Sequence record: OR539219.1
Origin: Escherichia phage vB-Eco-KMB39
DNA: 64,000 nt
Direction: 5' to 3' (one strand)
The notes under the pieces were generated by a model that made no database searches, had not been told where the DNA came from, and was given only the letters and a program-made list of their open reading frames with translations. Below are positions 3,915-21,494 of the stretch, piece after piece; the first letter of the stretch is position 1, and the number at the start of each line of letters is the position of its first letter. Position numbers and translations under genes: made by a program.

Positions 3915-4532
3915 ATGTACCACTTTGTATATGAAACAACAAATCTAATAAACGGTAAAAAGTATATAGGAAAACACTCTACTGATGACTTGAATGATGG
4001 TTACCTTGGTTCCGGTAAGGCAATTCAGCAGGCTATAAAGAAATATGGTGAAAACAATTTCTCTAGAACAATACTAAAAGAGTTTAAAACTTCCGAAGAA
4101 GCGTACATGTATGAAGAAGAAATTATAACTCCTGAAATAATAAAAAGCAAAAATTATTATAATATGAAACCTGGTGGAATTGGTGGAATTGTTATGACTA
4201 CAGAGGTTATAGCAAAGATGAAAGAATCTTCCGCTAAGAGATTTGAAAACTCACCGGGCACGGTATTAGGTACAACTTGTTACACCAATGGAACTAAAAA
4301 TATTTTTATTAAACCTGGAGAACTTGTTCCAGAAGGATTTGTAAAAGGGATGGTTCATCCTAATAGAAAGTCCAGAAAAGGATGTAAAGTCAAACCGACT
4401 ACCACAGGAACTTTTTGGGTCAATAATGGCGCAATAAATAAATTAATACAACCAGACGGTATTATTCCCGACGGATTTATTAAAGGTCGTCTCATGAAAA
4501 GAGATTCTAAAGGCAAATTTAGTAAGGCATAA
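3915..4532 (+). CDS. segD: GIY-YIG homing endonuclease SegD
   Basis: 205 aa; N-terminal GIY-YIG motif (VYETTNLINGKKYIGKH); located between inh and uvsW as T4 segD. Confidence 0.82.
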   Translation: MYHFVYETTNLINGKKYIGKHSTDDLNDGYLGSGKAIQQAIKKYGENNFSRTILKEFKTSEEAYMYEEEIITPEIIKSKNYYNMKPGGIGGIVMTTEVIAKMKESSAKRFENSPGTVLGTTCYTNGTKNIFIKPGELVPEGFVKGMVHPNRKSRKGCKVKPTTTGTFWVNNGAINKLIQPDGIIPDGFIKGRLMKRDSKGKFSKA

Positions 4533-4534
4533 TT

Positions 4535-6043
4535 ATGGATATTAAAGTACATTTTCACGACTTCAGTCATGTACGCATCGATTGTGAAGAGAGCACGTTC
4601 CACGAATTAAGAGATTTCTTTTCGTTTGAGGCAGATGGATATAGGTTTAATCCTCGCTTCAGATATGGCAACTGGGATGGACGAATCCGTCTTTTAGATT
4701 ATAATCGTCTTCTTCCGTTCGGCTTAGTCGGGCAAATTAAAAAGTTCTGCGATAACTTTGGCTATAAAGCCTGGATTGACCCTCAAATTAATGAAAAAGA
4801 AGAATTATCAAGAAAAGATTTTGATGAATGGCTTTCTAAATTAGAAATCTATTCAGGAAATAAAAGAATTGAACCACACTGGTATCAAAAAGATGCAGTG
4901 TTCGAAGGATTAGTTAATCGTCGCAGAATTCTTAATCTTCCAACATCCGCAGGTAAATCTTTAATTCAAGCTTTGCTTGCACGTTATTATTTGGAAAATT
5001 ATGAAGGTAAAATTCTTATCATTGTTCCAACAACTGCTCTGACAACTCAGATGGCTGATGACTTTGTTGACTATCGTTTATTCAGTCATGCAATGATAAA
5101 GAAAATCGGCGGCGGAGCATCAAAAGATGATAAATATAAAAATGATGCACCAGTCGTCGTTGGTACATGGCAAACTGTAGTTAAACAACCGAAAGAATGG
5201 TTCTCACAGTTTGGAATGATGATGAATGATGAATGTCATCTTGCTACAGGAAAAAGTATTTCATCTATCATATCAGGATTAAATAACTGTATGTTTAAAT
5301 TTGGTCTATCAGGTTCATTACGTGATGGCAAAGCCAATATCATGCAGTATGTTGGAATGTTTGGTGAAATATTTAAACCAGTAACGACTTCTAAATTAAT
5401 GGAAGATGGACAAGTAACTGAGCTAAAAATTAATAGTATTTTTCTTCGCTATCCCGATGAGTTCACTACTAAATTAAAGGGAAAAACTTACCAAGAAGAA
5501 ATAAAAATTATTACTGGACTCAGTAAAAGAAATAAATGGATTGCTAAATTAGCTATTAAACTTGCACAAAAAGATGAAAACGCTTTTGTCATGTTTAAGC
5601 ATGTATCACATGGTAAAGCTATTTTCGATTTAATTAAAAATGAATACGATAAAGTTTATTACGTATCAGGGGAAGTTGATACCGAAACACGCAACGTAAT
5701 GAAAACCCTAGCTGAAAACGGTAAAGGAATAATTATAGTAGCTAGTTATGGTGTATTTTCTACTGGTATTTCAGTTAAAAATCTGCATCACGTTGTTTTA
5801 GCGCACGGTGTTAAATCAAAAATCATTGTATTACAAACAATCGGTCGTGTATTACGTAAGCATGGTTCTAAGACAATAGCAACAGTCTGGGATCTTATAG
5901 ATGACGCGGGCGTAGTTTCTAAATCAAAAACATCTTCTAAAAAATACTCGCATTTAAACTATCTTTTAAAACATGGACTTGATCGTATTCAGCGTTATGC
6001 TGATGAAAAGTTTAATTATGTGATGAAAGAGGTTAAACTTTGA
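4535..6043 (+). CDS. uvsW: UvsW RNA-DNA and DNA helicase
   Basis: 502 aa; SF2 helicase motifs (Walker A region PTSAGKS, DECH box MMMNDECHLA); sequence matches recalled T4 UvsW. Confidence 0.92.
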   Translation: MDIKVHFHDFSHVRIDCEESTFHELRDFFSFEADGYRFNPRFRYGNWDGRIRLLDYNRLLPFGLVGQIKKFCDNFGYKAWIDPQINEKEELSRKDFDEWLSKLEIYSGNKRIEPHWYQKDAVFEGLVNRRRILNLPTSAGKSLIQALLARYYLENYEGKILIIVPTTALTTQMADDFVDYRLFSHAMIKKIGGGASKDDKYKNDAPVVVGTWQTVVKQPKEWFSQFGMMMNDECHLATGKSISSIISGLNNCMFKFGLSGSLRDGKANIMQYVGMFGEIFKPVTTSKLMEDGQVTELKINSIFLRYPDEFTTKLKGKTYQEEIKIITGLSKRNKWIAKLAIKLAQKDENAFVMFKHVSHGKAIFDLIKNEYDKVYYVSGEVDTETRNVMKTLAENGKGIIIVASYGVFSTGISVKNLHHVVLAHGVKSKIIVLQTIGRVLRKHGSKTIATVWDLIDDAGVVSKSKTSSKKYSHLNYLLKHGLDRIQRYADEKFNYVMKEVKL

Positions 6044-6732
6044 ATTATAAATTAATATATGATAATTTAATTAATAGAGCCCAGAATCGGGCTCGCCTTA
6101 ATGGATACACTGAAACACATCATATAATTCCTAGATGTATGGGTGGTACAAATGATAAGTGTAATTTAGTAGAACTAACGGCTGAAGAACATTTTATAGC
6201 CCATAAACTTTTAGCTAAAATTCATCCAAACCATTACGGTATAATTAAAGCTGTTATATGTATGGGGATGAATTCAAATACTCATGAAAGACACGTCAAT
6301 AAATCTTACGCATGGGAACGTCGTAAAATGGCAGAACTTCAATCCGGCGAAGGTAATCCATTTTACGGAAAACACCATACGGAAGAACATAAACAATATA
6401 TGTCAAAACTCATGAAAAGTCGTCCAATTACATGGGGAAATAAAATTAGTAAAACTAAAAGAATGAACCCAACGAAATGGACTGAAGAAGCTAAAAGATT
6501 ACATTCAATCAATCAATCGGGTAAAAATAACGGCATGTATGGAAGGAAACATTCCGCTAAATCTATTCAGAAAATTAAAGATAACATGCCAGATAATTCA
6601 GGAGCTAATAACCCAGCTGCTAAACCTATAGAAGTAAATGGTGTTAAGTATAAATGTATGAAAGATGCTTCTAAAGCTACTGGATTATCAATGTACAAAC
6701 TAAGAATACTTAGAAAAACAGTTAATTTATAA
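6040..6732 (+). CDS. Free-standing HNH homing endonuclease (Mob family) inserted after uvsW; TTG start overlapping uvsW stop
   Basis: 230 aa; N-terminus MNYKLIYDNLINRAQ...TETHHIIPRCMGGTNDKCNLVELTAEEHFIAHKLL closely parallels MobE at 33608-34339; repeated NUMOD3-like GKHHTEEHK/GRKHSAKS motifs; only in-frame start is TTG at 6040 preceded by AAAGAGG. Confidence 0.8.
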   Translation: MNYKLIYDNLINRAQNRARLNGYTETHHIIPRCMGGTNDKCNLVELTAEEHFIAHKLLAKIHPNHYGIIKAVICMGMNSNTHERHVNKSYAWERRKMAELQSGEGNPFYGKHHTEEHKQYMSKLMKSRPITWGNKISKTKRMNPTKWTEEAKRLHSINQSGKNNGMYGRKHSAKSIQKIKDNMPDNSGANNPAAKPIEVNGVKYKCMKDASKATGLSMYKLRILRKTVNL

Positions 6733-6744
6733 GGGCTTCGGCCC
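6733..6744 (+). terminator. Hairpin after HNH gene
   Basis: GGGCTTCGGCCC (UUCG loop) then TTTGG; weak T-run. Confidence 0.4.
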
Positions 6745-6757
6745 TTTGGAGAAAAAG

Positions 6758-6988
6758 ATGTTACTAGAATTTAAACAATTTCTTTATGAAGCTTCTATTG
6801 ATGAATTTATGGGTAAAATTGCCTCTTGTCAAACATTAGAAGGTTTAGAAGAACTTGAAGCTTATTATAAGAAAAGAGTTAAAGAAACTGAATTAAAAGA
6901 TACTGATGACATCTCTGTGAGAGATGCTTTGGCAGGAAAAAGAGCTGAATTAGAAGATTCAGATGATGAAGTAGAAGAAAGCTTTTAA
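6758..6988 (+). CDS. uvsW.1: UvsW.1 small acidic protein
   Basis: 76 aa from ATG at 6758 (MLLEFKQFLYEASIDEF...); matches recalled T4 UvsW.1; ORF-track start at 6746 is a TTG. Confidence 0.8.
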   Translation: MLLEFKQFLYEASIDEFMGKIASCQTLEGLEELEAYYKKRVKETELKDTDDISVRDALAGKRAELEDSDDEVEESF

Positions 6989-6997
6989 ATTAAAAAA

Positions 6998-7020
6998 GGC
7001 CCAACCAAAAAGGAAGGGCC
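6998..7020. terminator. Possible hairpin between convergent uvsW.1 and uvsY.-2
   Basis: GGCCC...GGGCC inverted repeat with large A-rich loop; weak. Confidence 0.3.
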
Positions 7021-7043
7021 AAAACTATAGACTAAAGGTCACA

Positions 7044-7211
7044 CTATAGCAAAAGTTGTGTTTCATTTAATTGTTCTTCCGAACTTTCTGAAACTGGTAG
7101 TTCTTTAATGTAATTATAACAAGGCCCAGGATGTACAGGACCTTTGTCTGTTTCAACAACCAATGCAGAATCGATTGGAGTTTTACAGACAACACAAATC
7201 TTATCTGACAT
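7044..7211 (-). CDS. Small Cys-rich protein (position of T4 uvsY.-2), below ORF-track length cutoff
   Basis: Hand-translated 55 aa ORF MSDKICVVCKTPIDSALVVETDKGPVHPGPCYNYIKEL...; CxxC...C pattern. Confidence 0.55.
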   Translation of the reverse strand: MSDKICVVCKTPIDSALVVETDKGPVHPGPCYNYIKELPVSESSEEQLNETQLLL

Positions 7212-7239
7212 GATTGTCTCCTCTAAATTATATATCTAT

Positions 7240-7464
7240 TTATATAACTCTCATATGCATATCAATACCCATATCTTTAGAATAAAAATATTCATCAAGA
7301 TATCCAGCAAATTTTCCTTTAATATAAAGGACATCTTCACCACACGGGTGGTCGGCCAGGATACGAATATCCTGACGCTTAAGATTATACTTTTTCATTA
7401 AGAATTGAATCTCAGTTTCAAATTCTTCTTCATAATTAAAAGCATCATCAATGCTATATCTCAT
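7240..7464 (-). CDS. Hypothetical protein (position of T4 uvsY.-1)
   Basis: 74 aa ORF immediately downstream of uvsY. Confidence 0.6.
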   Translation of the reverse strand: MRYSIDDAFNYEEEFETEIQFLMKKYNLKRQDIRILADHPCGEDVLYIKGKFAGYLDEYFYSKDMGIDMHMRVI

Positions 7465-7877
7465 TATTTTCCAGCCTCAAATGCTCGCATGTCTTGAATG
7501 TGCTTAATAGCAAATCCACGTGATTTAATAGCATCAAGAGCTCCGCTACAGAAATCTAATAAAATCCCCCAATACTGTAACGAGGTATCAACCTTTAAAA
7601 CATCCTTATCAGCTGATAGAACTGTCTTCATTTCTGATTTCTCGTAACGATCCATACTAAATTCATCACCATCTCCTCGTCCCGAGTAGTAGTCTAATTT
7701 AGCTTTAAGAGCAACTTTCTTTTGCGCGTCAATTCTAAGCATTTCCTTTTTAATACTTGAATGCTTATTAAGCCATTTACTATATAACATCACATTATTA
7801 GCTGCTTCATACTGTAATTTAGTCGAATCTATAAACACATCTTTCTTCAATTCTTCTTGAAGATCTTCTAATCTCAT
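7464..7877 (-). CDS. uvsY: UvsY recombination mediator
   Basis: 137 aa; MRLEDLQEELKKDVFIDSTKLQYEAANNV... matches recalled T4 UvsY. Confidence 0.92.
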   Translation of the reverse strand: MRLEDLQEELKKDVFIDSTKLQYEAANNVMLYSKWLNKHSSIKKEMLRIDAQKKVALKAKLDYYSGRGDGDEFSMDRYEKSEMKTVLSADKDVLKVDTSLQYWGILLDFCSGALDAIKSRGFAIKHIQDMRAFEAGK

Positions 7878-7917
7878 ATTGTTCTCTATTCAATTGTTAT
7901 TGGATGGACTTAGATTC

Positions 7918-7944
7918 ATTATACCACGTTTTAACGTGAAGCAT
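7918..7944 (-). promoter_or_regulatory. MotA-dependent middle promoter upstream of uvsY
   Basis: On minus strand: MotA box ATGCTTCA, 13 nt spacer, -10 TATAAT, about 40 nt upstream of the uvsY ATG. Confidence 0.65.
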
Positions 7945-8342
7945 TATACTCTATTACTAGAAGCCAGTTGCAGTTTTATCTGCTCAATATCATCAGGGTT
8001 ATCGATGACCGAAAAACGTATTTCTACTATCAGAGTATAATCATCATAAACGGGTATCACATTAACTGCTAATTTATCAATACGTGGCTCATAGTTTCTT
8101 ACTGCGCTTTCGATATTACGCTCAACTGTGTCAGCAGTAAGAGGAGTCATATTTTCAAAAAGCTGGTCTGATAAATCACATCCAAATTCAGGGTCAAACG
8201 GTCTTGAACCTTTTCTTGTTGTAATAATTCCCAAAAGACTGTTTTTAATTGACCTTAATCCAAGTGATCTGGAAACGTCTTTGTTCCAATCCATTTTCAT
8301 TTCCGGGTCAATGTCAGAATAAAGCTTATTAATATTTGACAT
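7944..8342 (-). CDS. 25: Baseplate wedge protein gp25
   Basis: 132 aa, same length and order as T4 gp25. Confidence 0.88.
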   Translation of the reverse strand: MSNINKLYSDIDPEMKMDWNKDVSRSLGLRSIKNSLLGIITTRKGSRPFDPEFGCDLSDQLFENMTPLTADTVERNIESAVRNYEPRIDKLAVNVIPVYDDYTLIVEIRFSVIDNPDDIEQIKLQLASSNRV

Positions 8343-8968
8343 TATAGTAACTCAAAGAACTCTTTGAGGCCTCTTATTACGTGAGCATGGGTTTTTCCAC
8401 ACTCTGGACACTTAATTGGAACAGCCAAATAAACAGTAGGCTTTAAAAGCATATCTTTTATAGCTACAATATCTGACTCTGTGATGATAGAATATAAATC
8501 TTCCAGTTCTTTTTCATTTAAGTCTTCAACTGGAATGCTTTCCCCGTTAGCATGAATCGTTTCTATACATGATACTATCATGTGGGCTATATTTTTATCA
8601 TCAAAAATTTTAGGGTATCGGAATTTAATTTTAATGTCACCCAGTGTATACCAGAGGTCTTCTGGTGCATCTATTTGTGTATGTAATAGATTTATATGGG
8701 TTGGTATTTCAGTTCCACAGGTGCACTTCCAGGAGTTTTCGTGATTAACTTCACCGAGAGAATGTGCCCATAAATGAATCAACAATAGTTCTGATTCTTG
8801 GCGGTTTAAATCTTTTGCATTTGTGCAGTCTTTGATTAGCTTTTTAACAATTACTTCTACGGAACCATTATTTTTGGCAGTAATAAGTTCTAGATATTCT
8901 TTAAGCGTGAATGCGCGACAATTGATTATTTTAGAACCAACTCTCACATCAAATTTGTATTCATACAT
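8342..8968 (-). CDS. 26: Baseplate hub protein gp26
   Basis: 208 aa; Cys-rich; synteny and size as T4 gp26. Confidence 0.85.
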
Positions 8969-8989
8969 ATTTAGCTCCTTTATTTATCA

Positions 8990-8997
8990 TATTTATA
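8990..8997 (-). promoter_or_regulatory. Late promoter (TATAAATA on minus strand) for genes 26-25
   Basis: Plus-strand TATTTATA; overlaps the divergent late promoter for gene 51. Confidence 0.6.
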
Positions 8998-9001
8998 AAT
9001 A
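8994..9001 (+). promoter_or_regulatory. Late promoter (TATAAATA) for genes 51-27-28-29-48-54
   Basis: Exact TATAAATA 18 nt upstream of gene 51 ATG. Confidence 0.65.
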
Positions 9002-9018
9002 GAATAAAAGGAGCATCT

Positions 9019-9768
9019 ATGGCAAACATTATTCGTTGTAAATTACCAGATGGTGTTCATCGTTTTAAACCATTTACGGTAGAAGATTATCGAGATTTTT
9101 TGTTAGTTCGAAACGATATAGAACATCGGTCACCACAAGAACAGAAAGAAATAATTACTGATTTAATTGATGATTATTTTGGAGACTATCCGAAGACTTG
9201 GCAACCATTTATATTTTTGCAGGTATTTGTAGGGTCAATAGGTAAAACAAAAGTACCGGTCACATTTGTATGTCCAAAATGTAAAAAAGAAAAGACAGTT
9301 CCATTTGAAATATATCAAAAAGAATTAAAGGAACCTGTTTTTGATGTAGCTAATGTTAAAATTAAATTAAAGTTTCCTTCTGAGTTTTATGAAAATAAAG
9401 CAAAGATGATTACTGAAAATATTCATTCTGTTCAAGTAGATGAAATATGGTATGATTGGAAGGAAATTAGTGAATCCAGTCAAATAGAACTTGTTGATGC
9501 CATCGAGATAGAAACATTAGAAAAAATTCTCGATGCAATGAATCCTATTAATTTAACTCTACATATGTCATGCTGTAATAAGTACATTAAAAAATACACT
9601 GATATAGTAGACGTGTTTAAGCTATTAGTTAACCCAGATGAGATATTTACTTTTTATCAAATTAATCACACACTCGTAAAAAGTAATTATAGCTTAAATT
9701 CAATAATGAAAATGATTCCTGCCGAGCGCGGATTCGTATTAAAACTGATTGAGAAGGATAAACAATAA
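9019..9768 (+). CDS. 51: Baseplate hub assembly protein gp51
   Basis: 249 aa; size and synteny as T4 gp51. Confidence 0.85.
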
Positions 9769-10940
9769 TGAGTATGTTGCAACGCCCCGGATATCCAAAT
9801 CTCAGCGTTAAATTATTTGATAGCTACGACGCTTGGAGTAATAATAGATTTGTTGAATTAGCTGCTACTATTACTACATTAACTATGCGGGATTCTCTTT
9901 ATGGCCGAAATGAAGGAATGCTGCAGTTTTATGATTCTAAAAACATCCATACAAAAATGGATGGAAATGAAATAATTCAGATTTCTGTAGCTAATGCAAA
10001 TGATATTAATAATGTTAAAACACGAATTTATGGATGTAAGCATTTTTCCGTGTCAGTAGATTCAAAAGGTGATAACATCATTGCTATTGAATTGGGAACT
10101 ATTCATTCTATAGAAAATCTTAAATTTGGTAGACCATTTTTCCCTGATGCGGGTGAATCAATAAAAGAAATGCTTGGTGTCATTTATCAAGACCGTACAC
10201 TATTAACTCCAGCAATAAATGCTATAAATGCTTATGTTCCTGATATTCCATGGACTAGCACATTTGAAAACTATTTGTCATATGTAAGAGAAGTTGCTCT
10301 AGCTGTAGGAAGTGACAAATTTGTATTTGTGTGGCAAGACATCATGGGAGTTAACATGATGGACTATGATATGATGATAAACCAAGAACCATATCCAATG
10401 ATTGTCGGCGAGCCATCTTTAATAGGTCAATTCATCCAAGAATTAAAATACCCATTAGCATATGATTTCGTTTGGTTGACTAAATCGAATCCTCACAAAC
10501 GTGACCCAATGAAAAATGCTACTATCTATGCTCATTCATTTTTAGATTCTTCATTGCCAATGATTACTACGGGAAAGGGCGAAAACTCTATTGTAGTGTC
10601 AAGGTCAGGTGCTTATTCTGAAATGACTTATAGGAATGGTTATGAAGAAGCTATTCGTCTTCAAACTATGGCACAATATGACGGCTATGCTAAATGTTCT
10701 ACTGTTGGTAATTTTAACTTGACTCCTGGTGTTAAAATTATTTTTAATGATAGTAAAAACCAATTTAAAACAGAATTTTACGTTGATGAAGTTATCCATG
10801 AATTATCCAATAATAACTCAGTAACTCATCTATATATGTTCACTAATGCAACGAAACTGGAAACAATAGACCCAGTTAAGGTTAAAAATGAATTTAAATC
10901 TGATACTACCACTGAAGAAAGTAGTTCTTCCAATAAGTAA
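9768..10940 (+). CDS. 27: Baseplate hub subunit gp27
   Basis: 390 aa; size and synteny as T4 gp27. Confidence 0.88.
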
Positions 10941-11421
10941 TAAAGAAGTTTCTATTCCTAAAATGGGTCTTAAACATTATAACATTTTAAAAGATGTTAA
11001 AGGCCCTGATGAAAATTTAAAACTTCTTATTGATTCTATTTGTCCGAATTTGTCACCAGCAGAAGTTGATTTCGTTTCTATTCATTTATTGGAATTTAAT
11101 GGAAAGATTAAATCTCGTAAAGAAATAGATGGTTATACTTATGACATTAATGATGTTTATGTGTGCCAAAGATTAGAATTTCAATACCAAGGAAATACAT
11201 TTTATTTTAGACCTCCTGGAAAATTTGAACAATTTTTAACGGTGAGCGATATGTTATCTAAATGCTTACTTAAGGTCAACGATGAAGTTAAAGAAATTAA
11301 TTTTCTTGAGATGCCAGCATTCGTTTTAAAATGGGCAAATGATATTTTTACAACTTTAGCAATTCCTGGCCCTAATGGTCCAATAACTGGAATTGGCAAT
11401 ATTATTGGATTATTTGAATGA
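10888..11421 (+). CDS. 28: Baseplate hub distal subunit gp28
   Basis: 177 aa; overlaps 3' end of gene 27. Confidence 0.8.
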
Positions 11422-13190
11422 AAAAGCCACAAGAAATGCAAACGATGCGTAGAAAAGTTATTTCAGATAATAAACCAACACAGGAAGCGGCTAAATCCGC
11501 TTCTAACACTTTATCTGGACTTAATGATATATCTACGAAATTGGATGATGCTCAAGCTGCTTCTGAATTAATAGCTCAAACTGTCGAAGAAAAATCGAAT
11601 GAAATAGTTGGAGCAATTGGTAACGTAGAAAGCGCAGTGAGTGATACTACTGCCGGTTCTGAGTTAATTGCTGAAACTGTCGAAATTGGCAACAATATTA
11701 ATAAAGAAATCGGTGAATCACTCGGAAGCAAATTAGATAAATTAACAAGTTTACTGGAACAAAAAATTCAGACAGCTGGAATTCAGCAAACTGGAACGAG
11801 TTTAGCTACGGTTGAAAGCGCTATTCCCGTTAAAGTCGTTGAGGATGGTACTGCTGAATCTGTGGGTCCTTTATTACCAGCTCCTGAAGCAGTTAATAAT
11901 GATCCTGACGCTGATTTTTTCCCTACCCCTCAGCCAGTTGAGCCAAAGCAAGAATCACCAGAAGAAAAACAGAAAAAAGAAGCATTTAACTTAAAATTAT
12001 CTCAAGCTTTAGATAAATTAACAAAGACAGTTGATTTTGGATTTAAGAAATCCATTTCAATTACTGATAAAATATCAAGCATGCTATTTAAGTATACCGT
12101 CAGTGCTGCTATTGAAGCTGCTAAAATGACTGCAATGATATTGGCTGTTGTTGTTGGAATAGACCTGTTGATGGTTCATTTTAAATACTGGTCAGATAAA
12201 TTTTCAAAAGCCTGGGATTTATTTAATACTGACTTTACTAAATTCTCTAGCGAAACCGGAACATGGGGTCCTTTATTACAGAGCATCTTTGATTCTATTG
12301 ATAAAATTAAACAACTTTGGGAAGCGGGAGATTGGGGTGGATTGACAGCAGCTATTGTTGAAGGACTCGGAAGTGTTCTTTTTAATTTAGGTGAACTTAT
12401 TCAATTAGGTATGGCTAAATTATCTGCAGCAATTCTTCGAGTCATTCCTGGTATGAAGGATACTGCTGATGAAGTAGAAGGAAGAGCATTAGAAAATTTC
12501 CAAAATTCTACTGGAGCATCTCTCAATAAAGAAGACCAGGAAAAAGTTGCAAATTATCAAGATAAACGAATGAATGGAGACCTTGGTCCGATAGCAAAAG
12601 GATTAGATAAAATTGCTAATTGGAAAACTCGTGCATCTAATTGGATTCGTGGGGTTGATAATAAAGAAGCACTAACTACCGACGAAGAACGCGCAGCAGA
12701 AGAAGAAAAATTAAAGCAACTTTCACCTGAAGAAAGAAAAAATGCTTTAATGAAGGCTAATGAAGCCCGTGCCGCAATGATTCGCTTTGAAAAATATGCT
12801 GATTCAGCTGATATGAGTAAAGACTCAACGGTTAAATCAGTTGAAGCTGCCTATGAAGACCTTAAAAAACGGATGGATGACCCGGATTTAAATAATTCGC
12901 CGGCAGTTAAAAAAGAACTTGCTGCTAGATTTTCTAAAATTGATGCTACTTATCAAGAGCTCAAGAAAAATCAGCCTAATGCCAAACCTGAAACTTCTGC
13001 TAAATCGCCAGAAGCAAAACAAGTCCAGGTAATAGAAAAGAACAAAGCACAGCAAGCTCCTGTTCAACAAGCATCTCCTTCAATCAATAATACTAATAAT
13101 GTTATTAAGAAAAATACTGTCGTTCATAATATGACACCCGTAACGAGCACGACTGCTCCTGGTGTATTTGATGCGACTGGAGTTAATTAA
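11418..13190 (+). CDS. 29: Baseplate hub subunit / tail length determinator gp29
   Basis: 590 aa; coiled-coil and low-complexity regions; size and synteny as T4 gp29. Confidence 0.88.
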   Translation: MKKPQEMQTMRRKVISDNKPTQEAAKSASNTLSGLNDISTKLDDAQAASELIAQTVEEKSNEIVGAIGNVESAVSDTTAGSELIAETVEIGNNINKEIGESLGSKLDKLTSLLEQKIQTAGIQQTGTSLATVESAIPVKVVEDGTAESVGPLLPAPEAVNNDPDADFFPTPQPVEPKQESPEEKQKKEAFNLKLSQALDKLTKTVDFGFKKSISITDKISSMLFKYTVSAAIEAAKMTAMILAVVVGIDLLMVHFKYWSDKFSKAWDLFNTDFTKFSSETGTWGPLLQSIFDSIDKIKQLWEAGDWGGLTAAIVEGLGSVLFNLGELIQLGMAKLSAAILRVIPGMKDTADEVEGRALENFQNSTGASLNKEDQEKVANYQDKRMNGDLGPIAKGLDKIANWKTRASNWIRGVDNKEALTTDEERAAEEEKLKQLSPEERKNALMKANEARAAMIRFEKYADSADMSKDSTVKSVEAAYEDLKKRMDDPDLNNSPAVKKELAARFSKIDATYQELKKNQPNAKPETSAKSPEAKQVQVIEKNKAQQAPVQQASPSINNTNNVIKKNTVVHNMTPVTSTTAPGVFDATGVN

Positions 13191-15258: not shown

Positions 15259-15262
15259 CAAT

Positions 15263-15290
15263 GGGGACCTTTCGGTCCCCATATTTTTAT
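15263..15290. terminator. Bidirectional terminator between gene 54 and the convergent alt-region genes
   Basis: GGGGACC-TTTC-GGTCCCC hairpin followed by ATATTTTTATTT. Confidence 0.65.
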
Positions 15291-15577
15291 TTACGGAATG
15301 AAATGAAAGCAGCAACTGAAGCAACTAAACTGTCTTCAATATAAACTTCAATTTTTACCGGAGCTTCTGACTCAAATTTACCTGTTACTACACCCTGAAA
15401 AATACTTTCAGTCTGTTTTGGCTTTGAAAAATTTTCAGAAGGAAAAATTCCGAACTTTTTATCTGTTCCAAAAATTTTGATAAATTCATCGTAAACTGCT
15501 TCATTAAAAGCGTTATCAGCAGGAATAACGCCTTCAACTACAAGTTCTTGACCTAAAAAGCGCAAAGAAGATTTCAT
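15287..15577 (-). CDS. Hypothetical protein (position of T4 alt.-3)
   Basis: 96 aa ORF with its own early promoter and downstream terminator. Confidence 0.6.
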   Translation of the reverse strand: MKSSLRFLGQELVVEGVIPADNAFNEAVYDEFIKIFGTDKKFGIFPSENFSKPKQTESIFQGVVTGKFESEAPVKIEVYIEDSLVASVAAFISFRK

Positions 15578-15637: not shown

Positions 15638-17695
15638 CTACATTTTGAACTTTTTAGACATTCCGTTGATGTTAACCAAAGAAGCCAAGATTTGAGAAAC
15701 TTCGTTTTCCTCTTCTTTTGATTCTTCTACAAGAAATTGATTAAATCCAGCCATTGGACGAACTTCACCAGTTTCCATTAGATGGTCTCCATCATATACT
15801 GATTCTTCTAATTGTTCAGAAGGAGGAACGATTGTACCTTCAATTAGATACTTGTTATAAGCAGTTTCTTTCATAAAGTACGTACTTACTTTATTAATCT
15901 TCAGTAAAATTCCACGCGGTAGAATAACTTCAGCTTCTGATGGAAATCCTGATAAATGACCTGGAACGATAACTTTGATTCGCTCAGCTCCTTTAATTAC
16001 CATACCCACGCTAGTTTCAGCATCTTCATTAGCATATGTAGAATGACTACCCATATGCATCAAATCTTCTGCATCAACGGAATCTTCTCCTTCACCGGAA
16101 AATACTGCGCCGGAATCATCTAGAGCCATATAGTTTTTACCATGCTCACCGAAGATATTTGGTTTAAGCGATGTGGATACGAAGTTCTTGAAATAAAACA
16201 TTTTATTTTCAATGTTATGACGCAAAGTTTTAAAGGTAACTTCTTGTCCACGGTAAAGCGTAGTTCCTGGAGGAAGAACTGAACCTTTAGCGAATGCAGA
16301 ATCCAACGTCTCGATGTGCTTAATAGCACGTTCCATATATTCTTCACGGGTAGAATCTGGTTTACCCAAAAGGAACGAGTTCATTTCAACATATGAATCT
16401 GCACAATAATCTTCAATTACATCAGACTCAGCCTGAGTCAGTCCTTTTGGAGTTACTTCAGTGCTTGCGTATTCATATGCCTGAGCAGCAGATTCATTAA
16501 TCAATTTATAAATGCCATTCATGACAAATTGAATAATAGCTGTCTTTTCATCTGGCGTAGCTTTAGAACCTTTAACCAAATCATTGATAATTTTCTTAAT
16601 AACATCAAAGCTATTAGAAATATTAATGTCAGCAAGATCGCTTAAAATTTTATCGGTTTTATAATCAAAGAATTCTTTATTCTTTAAATATTCTTGAGAA
16701 CCTTGATATGTTATATCGCTCTGCAGCTTGATAGATGGATCACGTAAACGCGCATGGGCCAATGCGATATGATTTCGGAAGTTTTCTAGTTCATAATCGC
16801 TAGATTTAAAACGAGAAGCACTCCTCATACCACCAATAGCTCCTTTGCTGAAGTTTGAACCAATCTGGATAACGCCAGAGTTCATTGGTCCTTCTGCTTT
16901 ATATACCGGAACTTTAGATTCAAACTCTTGATATTTCTTGGCAGCGAAGCTATCACCCTGAAGTGAAGCATCAACAGTAGAATATTGAGCTTGTGCTGCT
17001 AATCGACGACTGATTTTAGTTTTCTGAATAACAGCTTGGTCCGTGCGTTTATCATTTTCTAAAGCAATAGAAGCAGCAACAGCGACAGCTTTAGGAACAG
17101 CATTTCCTGTTTTAACGTCTACATAAACATCACCGACCTTTGATTCAACTTTTGTGAATAACTCAGTTGAAATAGGAGGTACACCTGGAATGTCTTCTAA
17201 ATTGGCATTTTTACGGTAAACCATAATATATGCATACTTTTTATCATAGTCCCAGATTTCCTTTAAAAGAACATATCGACCTGCTCCTTTAGTACGTACT
17301 AAACGGTCAGCAATAACTTGCATTTGACGAGCTGCGCCATTTGTTTTACTCTTTAGTACACGGAATAAGCACGCGTCAATTTTGTACTGCTTCATTGTTT
17401 GAAGAGCAGTATCAAAAACAGCATTAATGACGCCAATTGGATTTCCACCCAAGTTTCTAAGCTTAACCAGCGATAATTTCTCGTTGACACCTATCATTAC
17501 GATATGCATCATTTTATCGCCTAGTTTAACGTTTTTATTTGTATCACCACCAGAGGTGTATGTACAAAATCTAAATCCAGGAAGCACGCTTTCTTCGCCG
17601 GCTTGGATAGCAAAAATTTGAGGTATTTTATGCTTAGGATTTAAGTTAACAACCGGCGCCGAAGCGCCGTCAAATAATTCTGTAATAAGTTCCAT
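15638..17695 (-). CDS. Alt-like ADP-ribosyltransferase paralog (intact)
   Basis: 685 aa; N-terminal ~220 aa ~65% identical to the adjacent Alt (MELITELFD...); C-terminal ART motifs R (TLYRGQEV), STS (NFVSTSLKP), ExE (EAEVILPRG). Confidence 0.85.
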   Translation of the reverse strand: MELITELFDGASAPVVNLNPKHKIPQIFAIQAGEESVLPGFRFCTYTSGGDTNKNVKLGDKMMHIVMIGVNEKLSLVKLRNLGGNPIGVINAVFDTALQTMKQYKIDACLFRVLKSKTNGAARQMQVIADRLVRTKGAGRYVLLKEIWDYDKKYAYIMVYRKNANLEDIPGVPPISTELFTKVESKVGDVYVDVKTGNAVPKAVAVAASIALENDKRTDQAVIQKTKISRRLAAQAQYSTVDASLQGDSFAAKKYQEFESKVPVYKAEGPMNSGVIQIGSNFSKGAIGGMRSASRFKSSDYELENFRNHIALAHARLRDPSIKLQSDITYQGSQEYLKNKEFFDYKTDKILSDLADINISNSFDVIKKIINDLVKGSKATPDEKTAIIQFVMNGIYKLINESAAQAYEYASTEVTPKGLTQAESDVIEDYCADSYVEMNSFLLGKPDSTREEYMERAIKHIETLDSAFAKGSVLPPGTTLYRGQEVTFKTLRHNIENKMFYFKNFVSTSLKPNIFGEHGKNYMALDDSGAVFSGEGEDSVDAEDLMHMGSHSTYANEDAETSVGMVIKGAERIKVIVPGHLSGFPSEAEVILPRGILLKINKVSTYFMKETAYNKYLIEGTIVPPSEQLEESVYDGDHLMETGEVRPMAGFNQFLVEESKEEENEVSQILASLVNINGMSKKFKM

Positions 17696-17698
17696 GAT

Positions 17699-19792
17699 TT
17701 ATCCTTGAACGAACTTGTAAGGCATGTTTGTAATATCTATGCAAGACGCAATAATTCCAAGAGATGATTCTACTTTCTGTTTAACATTTGATGAAACAAA
17801 TGATGCAAAGTCAACTTTGTCTTCTATTTCAATATCACCTGTCATTGCAACTACTTCGCCGGTTTCCATTAAACGGTCACCGTCATAAATTACCGATTCG
17901 GTGAGTTCTTCTGTGGTCATAACTTCAGCTTGAATGAGTTTTGTATTATTAGACGTGATTCCGTCATTATTAGAAGCATCAGTTATTTTATTAACTTTGA
18001 CCATCAATCCACGCGGTAGAATAACTTCAGCTTCTGTTGCTATTCCGAGACTTCCTGGATATACAACATTAACTTTATGAGCTCCATCAATTGCCCATCC
18101 TATTTGAACTTTAACGTATTCAGGATTTTCTTTATACGCTCTTATTTCGTTTGGATTAATAGTTATTCCTTCTTCATTTTTATCAACTGTTAATTCATTG
18201 CGAGCTTCTGGTTCTAAAAGACCAATACCAGCATGTGTAATTCCAAAACGTCCAAAAATGATAGGAGTTAAAGAAGTAGATACAAAATTTCTGAAATAGA
18301 ACACTTTATTTTTAACTAGTGCTTCGTATATAGGAGCAGTCATACTTTGAGCACGATAAACTGTAATGCCTTCTGGTATACGGTCACCATTTTCAAAAGC
18401 TGAATCTAAATTATTTATAGCAGATTCAATTTCTTTTTCACTCATTATATCATATCGTTCTGGATTGTAACGACCTAAAAGAAGATTATTGATGTCTGTA
18501 TATCCTGAACCACAATACTCTCTAATGCCGCGCTTTTGTGATGGAGTATATTTAGAACCATCACGGGCAATAGTAATATCAATCATTGGACCTGCACCAA
18601 TTCCGGAAAAGCTATAAATCATTCGTTTGAGGAATTTAGTTTTTGCTGCATTCCAGGCATTTTTAGTTATTTCTCCCCAGACTTCATCTGGCTGCCCTTT
18701 ACGAGTTTTATTATGTTTATCAAGCCAATTATCTTTATATTCTTCAAATAATTGATTAACAGCTGCTGCGTATTTCTCTAAACATTTTATTGAAGTAGTT
18801 GGTTCATTTTTAATCGCATTAAGAATTACATCTTTAATTTTTTCTGAAACTTCACCGACTTGACTCATTGGAAAGAATTTATAATCATAGTGAAGTTCAT
18901 CTGCCGTTCCTTCAGCAATAATTTTTGCTGCCTTAGTTTTAGAAGCTAATGAATTAATTCCAAGCTTCATTTCTTCTGCTTCGGGAATTAAAGGTGCAGT
19001 AGCAGGTTTATTGAAATTAGCTGCGGTAGATTCATACTTCTGGAATAATTCACTTTCAAATCTAGAAGATTCCAATGACTGACTTTGTGCAATTGCTCTA
19101 CGGGAAATTTTAACTTTAACGATTACGGCTTGGTCAGAACGTTTATCGTTTTCTTGTGCAATAGATGCAGCAATTGCCTCATTTTTGGTTACTTGAGCTC
19201 CAGTATCTTTATTAATATAAACATCACCGACCTTCGATTCAACTTTAGTAAAGAGCTCGGTACTAATTTCCGGAACTCCTGGAATGTCTTCTAGTGATAC
19301 ATTTTTGCGATGTATAAGAATATATGCATACTTTTTATCATAATCCCAGAGTTCCTTAAGAAGGACGTATCTGCCACCTGAACGACTACGGATAAGTCTA
19401 TCAGCAATAACTTGAATTTGTCGAGCTTGGCCAGCAGTTTTAGACTTAAGAATACGAAGCATACAAGCATCAATTTTATACTGACGCATTGTTTGCATTG
19501 CAACAGTAAAAACTGAATTGATATAATTAATTGGGCTTGGACCAAGACCTTTTAATTTAGCAATTGAACCTTTAGCAGTTAATGTAAAAGGAACAATATG
19601 CATCATTTTGTCGCCCATTTTTAAATCGCGATTAGTATCACCTCCAGATGTATAGGTACATAAACGAAAGCCTGGTTGTTCAATTGCATCATCAACATGA
19701 ACTGAAAAAATTTGTGGTATTTTCTTCTTTGGATTTAAGTTTGTAATCGGAAGAGTAGTATCTTCGTCAAATAATTCTGTAATAAGTTCCAT
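17699..19792 (-). CDS. alt: Alt ADP-ribosyltransferase (capsid-packaged, modifies host RNA polymerase)
   Basis: 697 aa; MELITELFDEDTTLPITNLNPKKKIPQIF...; ART motifs TVYRAQSM / NFVSTSLTP / EAEVILPRG; adjacent to gene 30 as in T4. Confidence 0.88.
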   Translation of the reverse strand: MELITELFDEDTTLPITNLNPKKKIPQIFSVHVDDAIEQPGFRLCTYTSGGDTNRDLKMGDKMMHIVPFTLTAKGSIAKLKGLGPSPINYINSVFTVAMQTMRQYKIDACMLRILKSKTAGQARQIQVIADRLIRSRSGGRYVLLKELWDYDKKYAYILIHRKNVSLEDIPGVPEISTELFTKVESKVGDVYINKDTGAQVTKNEAIAASIAQENDKRSDQAVIVKVKISRRAIAQSQSLESSRFESELFQKYESTAANFNKPATAPLIPEAEEMKLGINSLASKTKAAKIIAEGTADELHYDYKFFPMSQVGEVSEKIKDVILNAIKNEPTTSIKCLEKYAAAVNQLFEEYKDNWLDKHNKTRKGQPDEVWGEITKNAWNAAKTKFLKRMIYSFSGIGAGPMIDITIARDGSKYTPSQKRGIREYCGSGYTDINNLLLGRYNPERYDIMSEKEIESAINNLDSAFENGDRIPEGITVYRAQSMTAPIYEALVKNKVFYFRNFVSTSLTPIIFGRFGITHAGIGLLEPEARNELTVDKNEEGITINPNEIRAYKENPEYVKVQIGWAIDGAHKVNVVYPGSLGIATEAEVILPRGLMVKVNKITDASNNDGITSNNTKLIQAEVMTTEELTESVIYDGDRLMETGEVVAMTGDIEIEDKVDFASFVSSNVKQKVESSLGIIASCIDITNMPYKFVQG

Positions 19793-19815: not shown

Positions 19816-19823
19816 TATTTATA
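19816..19823 (-). promoter_or_regulatory. Late promoter (TATAAATA on minus strand) upstream of alt
   Basis: Plus-strand TATTTATA about 25 nt upstream of alt ATG; fits Alt being a late, head-packaged protein. Confidence 0.6.
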
Positions 19824-19828
19824 AAATT

Positions 19829-19845
19829 AAAGGCCCGAAGGCCTT
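19829..19845 (-). terminator. Hairpin terminator upstream of alt late promoter
   Basis: AAAGGCC-CGAA-GGCCTTT. Confidence 0.5.
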
Positions 19846-19848
19846 TAA

Positions 19849-20034
19849 TTAATAGAGAGCTAAAAGAGTACGATATACTTCAAACTTTGGACCTTTTTCA
19901 TATGGATCAAATCTTTCCATGAATTCATCATATGCTAGTTTATCTGGGAATTCAAGAATAACCTGCGATACCGCAGTGGAAACATCTCCACCTTCTTTTT
20001 GAGCCACGACAATTGTTTCTAAGTAAGCTTTCAT
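19849..20034 (-). CDS. Hypothetical small protein, start overlaps gene 30 stop
   Basis: 61 aa ORF; ATGA-type overlap with ligase stop codon. Confidence 0.5.
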   Translation of the reverse strand: MKAYLETIVVAQKEGGDVSTAVSQVILEFPDKLAYDEFMERFDPYEKGPKFEVYRTLLALY

Positions 20035-21494
20035 AAACCAGTTACCTCATGAAAATCGCCAAATACATCTTCGAACGTATTAGCTTTAGTTTTATCTTCA
20101 CGTAAACGAATTGCAATTGGAAGAAATAGCTTAACGTAATCAGTACGTCCATCTAATTTTACCCAGCCGTTGCATTCGCACTCTAGAATTTTTCCAATAT
20201 AATAATTTTGGTTTTCCATAATGCGAGTACGATCAAGTTCATGCGATTTTATACCGGCTTTATCTTTTAAGCCTGAACCAGCATTTACTTTAATTTTTCC
20301 ACACTCTGATTCAAGAATGAAACCACCTGCTTTAGTAGGGTCTTTACGGTGAGGATAAATTCCTACAATTTTTAAATCAACATCAATTACTTCTTTAAAT
20401 TTATAAAGATTTTTTGAACGAGCATTTTCCCATAATCCATCGATATTTTTAAGAATAATACCTTCAAGACCTTGGTCAATATACTTTTTATAAATTACCT
20501 TAGCTTCATCTAGGTTATTTACTACTTGGTTTTCAATTAAAATTACTTTATCATAGCCTGATGTCATTTGTTCTAGTTTAGAAAAACGTACATCATATTT
20601 TAAACGAAATGCTGGAAGACCATATATTTCTACTAATGGAACATAGTCCCAGACCTGAAACTTCATGCATTGTGCTTCTTTTTCAGAAATGGTTCCCTTT
20701 AAAGATTTATTAGCGATTCCATTAGAAGTAGTACGTGATTCAGCTACTTCGGCGAATTCTTTAGCTTTACTAATTTCAGGATAAGCATCAAAAAGAAAAT
20801 CTAGGCCTTCTGGTTCCTTTTTAACTTGCTCATGGTATACCAATTCGCCATCAATTAACACACCTTCTGGATGAATCTGGCGAGCTTCTGCAGTCATTTT
20901 GATTAACTCTTCCTTGAGAAGATCTAATCCTAGATATTCATTACCAGCTCGTGATAAAAGACGAACATCATCTAATTCATCACCTCTGACTTCAGCAAAA
21001 CAGCGAGCTCCATCAGCTTTTAGCTGTGCAAAGGCTGGAAATTTGATATTCTTATTAATGCCTTTTTCGTCATAAGAACTTGCTAGCATTTGAGGTTGTT
21101 CAGGAATTAAACCTGGCCAAACTTTGTTTGCAATAGATACTGATGCACCGCATTCAAGGTCTCGCATCATCACCCGACGCAAAACTTCAACATCATCTTT
21201 TTTACCGTCAGTAATATATCCAGTTAATTCCTCAATTGCCGCATTTCCAGTCAATTTCCGAGTAGCTAACGTGAATTCAATGAAGTCAAGCATATCGGTA
21301 AGAGTCAACATTCCAAAACTCTGGGTAGTAATACCCGGTTTAGGCCATTTCTTGATATAATACTGTAACCCACGAGAATAAGTCAGACGATATACTCGTT
21401 TAAGCAATTCATTATCTTTATTCTTTTCAAGAATTGCTTGCTTCTGCTTAGTTGAACCAATAGATGCTATTTCGTTCAGAATTTTAAGAATCAT
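20031..21494 (-). CDS. 30: ATP-dependent DNA ligase gp30
   Basis: 487 aa; MILKILNEIASIGSTKQKQAILEKNKDNELLKRVYRLTY...; adenylation lysine motif region; matches recalled T4 ligase. Confidence 0.93.
   Translation of the reverse strand: MILKILNEIASIGSTKQKQAILEKNKDNELLKRVYRLTYSRGLQYYIKKWPKPGITTQSFGMLTLTDMLDFIEFTLATRKLTGNAAIEELTGYITDGKKDDVEVLRRVMMRDLECGASVSIANKVWPGLIPEQPQMLASSYDEKGINKNIKFPAFAQLKADGARCFAEVRGDELDDVRLLSRAGNEYLGLDLLKEELIKMTAEARQIHPEGVLIDGELVYHEQVKKEPEGLDFLFDAYPEISKAKEFAEVAESRTTSNGIANKSLKGTISEKEAQCMKFQVWDYVPLVEIYGLPAFRLKYDVRFSKLEQMTSGYDKVILIENQVVNNLDEAKVIYKKYIDQGLEGIILKNIDGLWENARSKNLYKFKEVIDVDLKIVGIYPHRKDPTKAGGFILESECGKIKVNAGSGLKDKAGIKSHELDRTRIMENQNYYIGKILECECNGWVKLDGRTDYVKLFLPIAIRLREDKTKANTFEDVFGDFHEVTGL

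Follow-up and report, generated by a model that had tools for sequence, protein, structure and literature searches.

Two adjacent full-length Alt-family ADP-ribosyltransferase genes at the alt locus of Escherichia phage vB-Eco-KMB39, with a remnant of the second gene in T4

The alt locus and its gene pair

The window analyzed here is a 64,000-nt stretch of the genome of Escherichia phage vB-Eco-KMB39 (OR539219.1). It carries alt (copy 1) and a full-length paralog of it (copy 2) on the minus strand, both of them intact and separated by 3 bp. The features of the locus are collected in Table 1. A preliminary description of this DNA had claimed two adjacent, intact Alt-family ORFs of 697 and 685 aa, and the coordinates and the matches to PF03496 and PHROG 802 agree with it. 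Both proteins start with MELITELFD and have the full-length three-part architecture, which consists of an N-terminal domain, a helical middle and a C-terminal ADP-ribosyltransferase (ART) domain with a tail.

Table 1. Coordinates of genes, domains and signals at the alt locus in the window
Feature	Position	Strand	Remarks
alt (copy 1)	17699..19792	(-)	697 aa; positional ortholog of T4 alt
Second full-length Alt paralog (copy 2; RB32 'alt.-2')	15638..17695	(-)	685 aa
Copy 1 N-terminal domain, aa 1–238	19079..19792	(-)	Identity 100% vs T4 Alt, 68% vs copy 2
Copy 1 ADP-ribosyltransferase domain, ~aa 413–632	17897..18556	(-)	PF03496 match aa 378–627; catalytic-residue alignment
Copy 2 N-terminal alpha/beta domain, aa 1–237	16985..17695	(-)	Common to copy 1 and T4 alt.-1/alt.-2
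Copy 2 ADP-ribosyltransferase domain, ~aa 413–631	15803..16459	(-)	PF03496 match aa 416–620; model matches toxin structures
T4-type late-promoter motif TATAAATA	19816..19823	(-)	23 nt upstream of copy 1 ATG; same position before T4 alt
GC-rich hairpin AAAGGCC-TTCG-GGCCTTT	19829..19846	(-)	Just past alt.1 stop and just before late promoter; read from sequence
Shine-Dalgarno AAGGA for copy 2	17702..17706	(-)	Within the last codons of copy 1; read from sequence
Upstream 9-bp repeat CTAAAGAGT	17348..17356	(-)	Marks 5' boundary of the T4 deletion
Downstream 9-bp repeat CTAAAAAGT	15649..15657	(-)	Marks 3' boundary of the 1,699-bp T4 deletion

Family membership, catalytic residues and fold

Both proteins matched the Pfam family PF03496 (ADPrib_exo_Tox), copy 1 with 129.3 bits and copy 2 with 72.0 bits, above the curated cut-off of 23.4 bits. 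PHROG 802 (Alt-like ART) was matched from end to end, over aa 1–696 of copy 1 and aa 1–685 of copy 2 (profile positions 2–674 of 674). Precomputed Pfam assignments for the relatives of copy 2 list PF26846 and PF03496, and NCBIfam yielded no model for either copy.

The R / STS / ExE motifs, previously noted in both copies, are located at R480, S505-T-S507 and E587-A-E589 in copy 1, and at R482, S507-T-S509 and E587-A-E589 in copy 2. R482, S507, S509, E587 and E589 were invariant in an alignment of 20 Alt-family sequences, which revealed no catalytic loss in either copy. R480 and the ExE of copy 1 aligned with the catalytic YR and ExE of CdtA and iota toxin Ia. Among the R-S-E ADP-ribosyltransferases, E-x-E is the arginine-specific signature. 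In T4 Alt, the Glu-to-Ala exchange E577A in this motif abolishes activity (PMC11404850); the reported E577 is taken to be the same residue as E576 of the RefSeq T4 Alt protein.

A phmmer search with copy 2 against the PDB sequences gave no match at E ≤ 0.01. The AlphaFold model of copy 2 (pLDDT 74) matched Vis, C3bot, CDTa, VIP2 and Ia with E values from 1.7e-6 to 5e-4, and the TM-score was ~0.6 on the target over ~245 columns. The model of the N-terminal domain had a pLDDT of 84.6 and a pTM of 0.83. As judged from the model, copy 2 adopts an ART fold of the C3/VIP2/iota-toxin type. The Alt copies have this catalytic fold and the R / S-T-S / E-x-E motifs in common with Vis, C3bot, CDTa, VIP2 and iota Ia, which are bacterial toxins that are secreted, use different delivery domains and show a sequence identity of 14–19%.

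Divergence between the copies and comparison with T4 Alt

The full-length identity of copy 1 and copy 2 is 40% (BLASTP, E = 8e-158), and it is unevenly distributed. The N-terminal ~220 aa had been described as ~65% identical, with a diverged center. Our comparison bore this out, with values of 68% over copy-1 residues 1–238, 20% over 239–412, 36% over 413–632 and 42% over 633–697. Between S-T-S and E-x-E, the identity decreased to 7–15% in windows. This stretch and the central helical region are the parts least alike between the paralogs. In related toxins, the S-T-S to E-x-E stretch is the site of the substrate-recognition loops. Recent gene conversion was rejected as the cause of the N-terminal likeness: the nucleotide identity in this region is only 67%, and no identical stretch is longer than the 27 nt at the very start of the genes.

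T4 Alt (NP_049811.1, 682 aa) resembles copy 1 in its promoter, hairpin, catalytic motifs and both gp21 sites. The two proteins are 100% identical over aa 1–238 and 92% identical in the C-terminal tail, but T4 carries a different allele in the middle, with 32% identity over aa 239–412 and 67% in the ART domain. T4 Alt and copy 2 have the architecture and all motifs in common, at 42% identity overall. T4 Alt is a head-packaged, injected mono-ADP-ribosyltransferase with RNA polymerase alpha (Arg265) and other host proteins as its targets. ModA and ModB are early proteins of ~200 aa, which are made after infection, are unpackaged and have no counterpart of the N-terminal and central domains. These T4 enzymes belong to the same R-S-E ART clade as Alt and are found in the same phage group (PMC5512222). 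T4 Alt alone is known to ADP-ribosylate RNA polymerase alpha at Arg265 (PMC2988021).

Transcription and translation signals

A late promoter had been placed before the first copy, and the motif TATAAATA indeed lies 23 nt upstream of the ATG, in a position identical to that in T4. Because this motif by itself is about as frequent in the whole window as expected by chance (11 found vs 10 expected), we infer its late-promoter function from its position and from the homology with T4. The adjacent hairpin was absent from the list of a simple terminator scan. It is identical in T4, and in the record of phage OE5505 the homologous site is annotated as a terminator. The probable role of the hairpin is to stop early or middle transcripts that arrive from upstream.

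The copy 1 stop codon (17699–17701) and the copy 2 ATG (17693–17695) are separated by a 3-bp gap without promoter or terminator, and the two genes are therefore probably co-transcribed. A separate promoter for copy 2 was considered and rejected, the internal TATAAATA at 18412–18419 being at chance frequency. The search for sigma-70-like promoters in the region gave 19 matches vs 17.1 expected in shuffled sequence, with none specific to copy 2.

Prohead protease sites

T4 Alt is cleaved by the prohead protease gp21 at ITE-6 and LTE-619 (PMC5694885). Motifs of this type were found at ITE-6 and LTE-632 in copy 1 and at ITE-6 and LEE-631 in copy 2, the C-terminal L-x-E being ~55–65 residues before the end in both cases. 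E6 and E631 were invariant in the alignment of 20 sequences, and copy 2 keeps the conserved tail beyond the C-terminal L-x-E. Besides its role as an enzyme, Alt has been described as a prohead core protein (PMC11404850). In the virion proteome preparation of phiD1 (fD1), DNA ligase and dCMP deaminase were flagged as particle-associated, that is, non-structural proteins were present (PMC8309999).

Conservation and distribution of copy 2

Copy 2 is the same gene as RB32 alt.-2 (YP_803136.1), T2 KMC23_gp211 (YP_010073850.1), T6 KMB99_gp201 and phiD1 (fD1) g200. These genes encode 685 aa, lie between alt and alt.-3, and are annotated as 'Alt-like RNA polymerase ADP-ribosyltransferase'. Their products are 99% identical to copy 2, the differences being few synonymous and rare nonsynonymous substitutions. 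In phiD1 (fD1), the same two genes are g200 and g201 (PMC8309999). The pair is also annotated in T2, T6, RB32 ("alt.-2; similar to alt") and other phages, with a DNA identity of 96–98%.

Copy 2 is under strong purifying selection. For the window, RB32, phiD1 (fD1), T2 and T6, the dN/dS values were 0.023–0.046 for copy 2 and 0.032–0.088 for copy 1, and any two copy-2 orthologs showed 4–11 nonsynonymous differences over 685 codons. A near-full-length copy 2 (at least 80%) was present in 401 of the 497 phage records with the gene, and ~95 of these records, besides T4, were without most of it. The 90%-identity cluster of copy 2 comprises 772 member sequences.

The paralogs had been remarked on in silico in papers of 2006 and 2026 (PMC1524935, PMC13600099); our literature searches for experiments on the second paralog found none, only these in-silico remarks. 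The two-gene alt arrangement is thus already known. Within the genus it is the usual condition, from which T4 departs. The window represents a T2/RB32-type Tequatrovirus with the usual two-gene alt locus of the genus, in which copy 2 is an anciently duplicated paralog.

Tandem arrays of full-length alt paralogs, arranged head-to-tail from DNA ligase to alt.-3, occur elsewhere in the Tevenvirinae, for example in Dhakavirus C6 and in Aeromonas phage 44RR (ORF187c) (PMC1524935). The Alts of these other arrays keep the R/S-x-S/E-x-E and L-x-E sites. Dhakavirus C6 has three such genes, encoding 694, 681 and 707 aa. The first groups with copy 1 (67%) and the last with copy 2 (51%), while the middle one is 35–37% identical to copy 1 and copy 2 and has no counterpart in the window. 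Because the end paralogs of Dhakavirus C6 group with copy 1 and copy 2, respectively, the Alt duplication predates Tequatrovirus.

The remnant of copy 2 in T4

The preliminary description had tentatively given T4 one full-length alt and the short downstream ORFs alt.-1 and alt.-2. This is correct, and the short ORFs are the remnant of a second alt copy. Over its first 348 nt, copy 2 is a near match to the DNA of T4 alt.-1 and alt.-2 (NP_049810.1, NP_049809.1). In T4, the loss of 1 nt from an A-run causes a frameshift that splits the reading frame of the second copy, and a 1,699-bp deletion between the 9-bp repeats CTAAAGAGT and CTAAAAAGT removes the rest of it. The T4 database record already traces alt.-1 and alt.-2 to an old duplication of alt. 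T4 is fully viable without most of the gene, so that growth, on laboratory hosts at least, does not require copy 2. A tie between the loss of copy 2 and the T4 allele of alt was also considered and rejected, as phage OE5505 has a T4-type alt together with an intact copy 2.

Proposed mechanism and alternative readings

We consider it quite likely that the locus is a two-gene late alt unit, the products of which would both be packaged, trimmed by gp21 and injected, and would act on partly different targets, with T4 keeping a remnant of the second gene. Alt and copy 2 would form a single late transcription unit from the TATAAATA promoter, and the translation of copy 2 would begin at its own ribosome-binding site, 3 bp past the copy 1 stop. 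Both proteins, made late, would enter the prohead core via their shared N-terminal region. After trimming by gp21, they would be injected with the phage DNA, and both would use NAD+ to ADP-ribosylate host proteins on arginine residues before the phage expresses any of its genes. The view that both copies are active and head-packaged fits the sequence evidence, because the protease sites are conserved, the genes appear to be co-transcribed late, and the purifying selection is strong. The central region and the S-T-S to E-x-E stretch, which carries the substrate loops in toxins, diverge most; this suggests that the host targets of copy 1 and copy 2 most likely differ in part. Rather tentatively, copy 2 might be an injected enzyme with substrates of its own, for example one that inactivates a host toxin or defense protein spared by Alt. 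Its loss in T4 and its presence in T2, T6 and RB32 might then play a part in differences in host range or defense sensitivity among T-even phages.

Copy 2 could instead be a redundant back-up or dosage copy, packaged and active on the targets of Alt, such as RNA polymerase alpha Arg265. The catalytic motifs, the arginine-type E-x-E and the processing sites are alike in both copies, and T4 and ~95 other records manage without most of copy 2. Nevertheless, we regard redundancy as unlikely. The central region is only 20% identical and the windows between S-T-S and E-x-E only 7–15%, yet copy 2 is 99% conserved among its orthologs, with a dN/dS of ~0.03. Moreover, the two lineages have been separate since before the Tequatrovirus/Dhakavirus split, and pure redundancy is rarely so long-lived.

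Very improbable, in our judgment, is a mainly structural or scaffolding role of copy 2 in the prohead core, or a pseudoenzyme with a non-catalytic ART domain. The description of Alt as a prohead core protein as well (PMC11404850), the Pfam score of copy 2 (72 bits, below the 129 bits of copy 1) and the lack of a phmmer match for it among the PDB sequences would be consistent with such a role. However, a pseudoenzyme would usually have lost its catalytic Glu or Arg, whereas all catalytic residues are invariant here. The modeled fold of copy 2 matches active toxins, and the 4–11 nonsynonymous differences between any two orthologs over 685 codons also argue against it. We see just as little chance that copy 2 is made late, stays unpackaged and acts in the producing cell instead of being injected: it keeps the MELITE propeptide, with the first 27 nt identical to alt, and it retains the C-terminal L-x-E and the tail, which is sensible only if the protein is exposed to the prohead protease (PMC5694885).

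Implications

As a sequence finding, the gene pair adds nothing new; hundreds of genomes have it in their annotation. At the alt locus, the model phage T4 is not typical of its relatives. About four-fifths of these have a second Alt-type enzyme that is conserved and probably injected. Work on ADP-ribosylation in host takeover or counter-defense with T2, T6 or environmental T-even phages should reckon with a pair of these enzymes rather than a single one.

The alt locus carries two intact genes

Two intact genes with catalytic and processing motifs lie at the alt locus under purifying selection, with a promoter motif at the T4 position. Copy 1 is the positional ortholog of T4 alt, copy 2 is a second full-length paralog, and the surroundings of both form a typical T-even phage segment. 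The two adjacent Alt-family ORFs of the preliminary description were borne out in every detail by coordinates, BLASTP, PF03496 and PHROG 802. The proteins begin with a common MELITELFD and are 40% identical in a full-length alignment (BLASTP, E = 8e-158). Each scored above the Pfam gathering threshold for PF03496 (ADP-ribosyltransferase exoenzyme) and matched PHROG 802 (Alt-like RNA polymerase ADP-ribosyltransferase) end to end. The similar N-terminus and diverged centre claimed earlier were also recovered: identity was 68% over copy-1 residues 1–238, 20% over 239–412, 36% over 413–632 and 42% over 633–697.

Features of the alt locus (window coordinates)
Feature	Position	Strand	Remark
gp29	11418-13190	plus
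gp48 and gp54		plus	same segment
Hairpin ATGGGGACC-TTTC-GGTCCCCAT	15261-15282		perfect 9-bp stem; between convergent genes 54 and alt.-3
alt.-3	15287-15577	minus	96 aa, Pfam DUF5498, intact
Early-type promoter of alt.-3	15637-15609		TTTACA-17-TATAGT with upstream TG
Copy 2	15638-17695	minus	685 aa
Downstream junction site CTAAAAAGT	15649-15657		copy 2 gene nt 2039-2047
Upstream junction site CTAAAGAGT	17348-17356		copy 2 gene nt 340-348
MELITELFD codons, copy 2	17669-17695
Copy 1	17699-19792	minus	697 aa; stop codon 17699-17701
Mosaic segment of copy 1	17897-19078		aa 239-632
MELITELFD codons, copy 1	19766-19792
Late-promoter motif TATAAATA	19816-19823		directly after hairpin; then GAGAGG, then copy 1 ATG
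GC-rich hairpin	19829-19846		downstream of alt.1 stop codon
alt.1	19849-20034	minus
DNA ligase gene 30	20031-21494	minus

The first 27 nt, encoding MELITELFD, are identical between the genes; the N-terminal regions are just 67% identical as DNA. The identical starts suggest either that the propeptide or the start of translation is under additional constraint, or that a short tract has undergone conversion.

Catalytic residues, fold and selection

The R / STS / ExE motifs noted earlier in both ORFs were located at R480, S505-T-S507 and E587-A-E589 in copy 1, and at R482, S507-T-S509 and E587-A-E589 in copy 2. The five residues (Arg, two Ser and two Glu) were invariant across 20 aligned Alt-family proteins with 42–95% identity to copy 2. 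A phmmer comparison with PDB sequences placed 'VYR' of copy 1 on the catalytic 'VYR' in CdtA and iota toxin Ia, and 'EAEVILPRG' on 'EYEVLLNHG' of the same toxins. As is well established for C3-like and iota-like toxins, arginine specificity in the R-S-E clade goes with E-x-E and not with Q-x-E. A Glu-to-Ala change in the E-x-E motif of T4 Alt, given as E577A, abolished in vivo ADP-ribosylation (PMC11404850). The RefSeq T4 motif reads E574-M-E576, and we take the mutated residue to be E576, with the numbering off by one; E576 corresponds to E589 in both copies. The AlphaFold model of copy 2 (mean pLDDT 74.4) matched the solved structures of Vis toxin, C3 exoenzymes, CDTa, VIP2 and iota Ia (E from 1.7e-6 to 5e-4, target-normalised TM-score about 0.6 over about 245 columns).

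Pairwise Nei–Gojobori estimates among the window, RB32, phiD1 (fD1), T2 and T6 gave dS values of 0.10–0.19 and dN values of 0.0025–0.0069 for copy 2, with dN/dS of 0.023–0.046 (0.032–0.088 for copy 1). The copy 2 proteins of these phages are 99% identical. Copy 2 is under strong purifying selection over the whole protein.

Expression signals

The late promoter previously proposed upstream of the first copy corresponds to the promoter motif TATAAATA, and T4 has the same hairpin, TATAAATA and alt-start arrangement. In the OE5505 record, a terminator is annotated where this hairpin lies. The copy 2 ATG follows the copy 1 stop codon by 3 bp and is preceded, 6 nt upstream, by AAGGA; given this spacing and the AAGGA, the simplest reading is a single late transcript with copy 2 as its second gene. 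Downstream, alt.-3 has its own promoter. C-terminal extensions of the T4 alt.-3 protein allow phage escape from the CmdTAC defence system (PMC11618068). The hairpin between genes 54 and alt.-3 was listed on both strands in the terminator scan, with a T-rich tail mainly on the plus strand, and is thus probably a bidirectional terminator; OE5505 has a terminator annotated in this gap too.

Predicted packaging and divergence of the paralogs

By mass spectrometry, T4 Alt was shown to be trimmed at two sites by the prohead protease gp21: at ITE-6, with loss of six N-terminal residues, and at LTE-619, with loss of 63 residues from the C-terminus (PMC5694885; PMC9026906). Predicted gp21 sites are ITE-6 and LTE-632 in copy 1, and ITE-6 and LEE-631 (aligned position) in copy 2. 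Glu6 and Glu631 were invariant in the 20-sequence alignment, and L-x-E at the C-terminal site is also kept in all three paralogs of phage C6. The best case that can be made for entry of copy 2 into the prohead comes from these conserved motifs. By analogy with T4 Alt (PMC2988021; PMC9026906), the Alt proteins would be synthesized late, incorporated into the prohead core, trimmed by gp21 and injected with the DNA, and host proteins would be arginine-ADP-ribosylated immediately on infection.

The N-terminal domain is conserved between the paralogs, and the helical middle and the S-T-S to E-x-E stretch are the most diverged. Within the latter, C3-like/iota-like toxins carry loops for substrate recognition. 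In 40-residue windows of the most diverged stretches, identity fell to 7–15% between copy 1 and copy 2, and to 22–37% between copy 1 and T4 Alt. Since the divergence includes the stretch holding the toxin substrate loops, the two enzymes may have different target sets.

Compared with T4 Alt, copy 1 is a mosaic allele, with 100% identity in residues 1–238, 32% in 239–412, 67% in the ADP-ribosyltransferase domain and 92% in the tail. Both allele classes occur in the database (316 records at ≥90% identity to copy 1, 212 at 60–80%). In the genus they coexist, and each combines freely with an alt locus that has or lacks copy 2.

The T4 remnant and the age of the duplication

As the preliminary description had it, T4 has a single full alt (682 aa) plus short alt.-1 (61 aa) and alt.-2 (67 aa); its record regards the two short ORFs as an old duplicate of the beginning of alt. 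In our alignment, the short ORFs are the start of copy 2, near-identical in protein and DNA. The frame of this remnant is split by a 1-nt deletion in an A-run, and directly after CTAAAAAGT the T4 sequence resumes with the final 11 nt of the copy 2 gene; CTAAAGAGT and CTAAAAAGT lie 1,699 bp apart in the window. T4 is therefore a deletion derivative at this locus. Coupling of the loss to the T4 alt allele was rejected, because OE5505 has a T4-type alt with an intact copy 2.

The Dhakavirus C6 has three full-length tandem Alt paralogs of 694, 681 and 707 aa (4495-10755 in the C6 stretch, L007). All have R / S-x-S / E-x-E and the L-x-E site, with S-A-S instead of S-T-S in the third. The first shares 67% identity with copy 1, the last 51% with copy 2, and the middle one 35–37% with both. 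Given the matches of the first and last paralogs, the lineages of copy 1 and copy 2 parted before the split of these genera, and their order has been preserved.

Distribution and annotation

Megablast found at least 80% of the 4.9-kb locus in 349 phage records, nearly all at 90–98% identity, including T2, T6, RB32, RB33 and RB27. For copy 2 alone, 401 of the 497 matching records held at least 80% of the gene; partial matches, in the sampled rows, covered the first 348 nt only, as in T4. In public data, its 90%-identity protein cluster comprises 772 sequences. In the RB32 record the gene is called alt.-2 and annotated 'apparent insertion in alt.-2; similar to alt', and T2 and T6 RefSeq name both genes 'Alt-like RNA polymerase ADP-ribosyltransferase'. 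Annotation of the locus is inconsistent among the matched records: 'thymidylate synthase' is the feature name under the match in ECO78 and ZCEC14, and T6 RefSeq names alt.1 'siderophore-interacting protein'. One record with a 97%-identical copy carries the name Pseudomonas phage PsgM02F; its host, Pseudomonas coronafaciens, is unusual for a Tequatrovirus.

The tandem pair is the standard, already annotated and known state of the genus. Among the paralogs of alt, Nolan et al. (2006) listed T4 alt.-1, T4 alt.-2 and a full-length second copy in phage 44RR (PMC1524935). The different-targets hypothesis of the preliminary description was already proposed for the two Alt-like paralogs (43% identity) of phage 6phi13, as an expanded target range (2026; PMC13600099). 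The two-gene finding is real and its interpretation sound, with the activity, packaging and targets of copy 2 as predictions. A literature search found no experimental work on a copy 2-type second Alt enzyme, perhaps because T4 lacks it. This enzyme is widespread and conserved, and its remaining interest is biological, not genomic.
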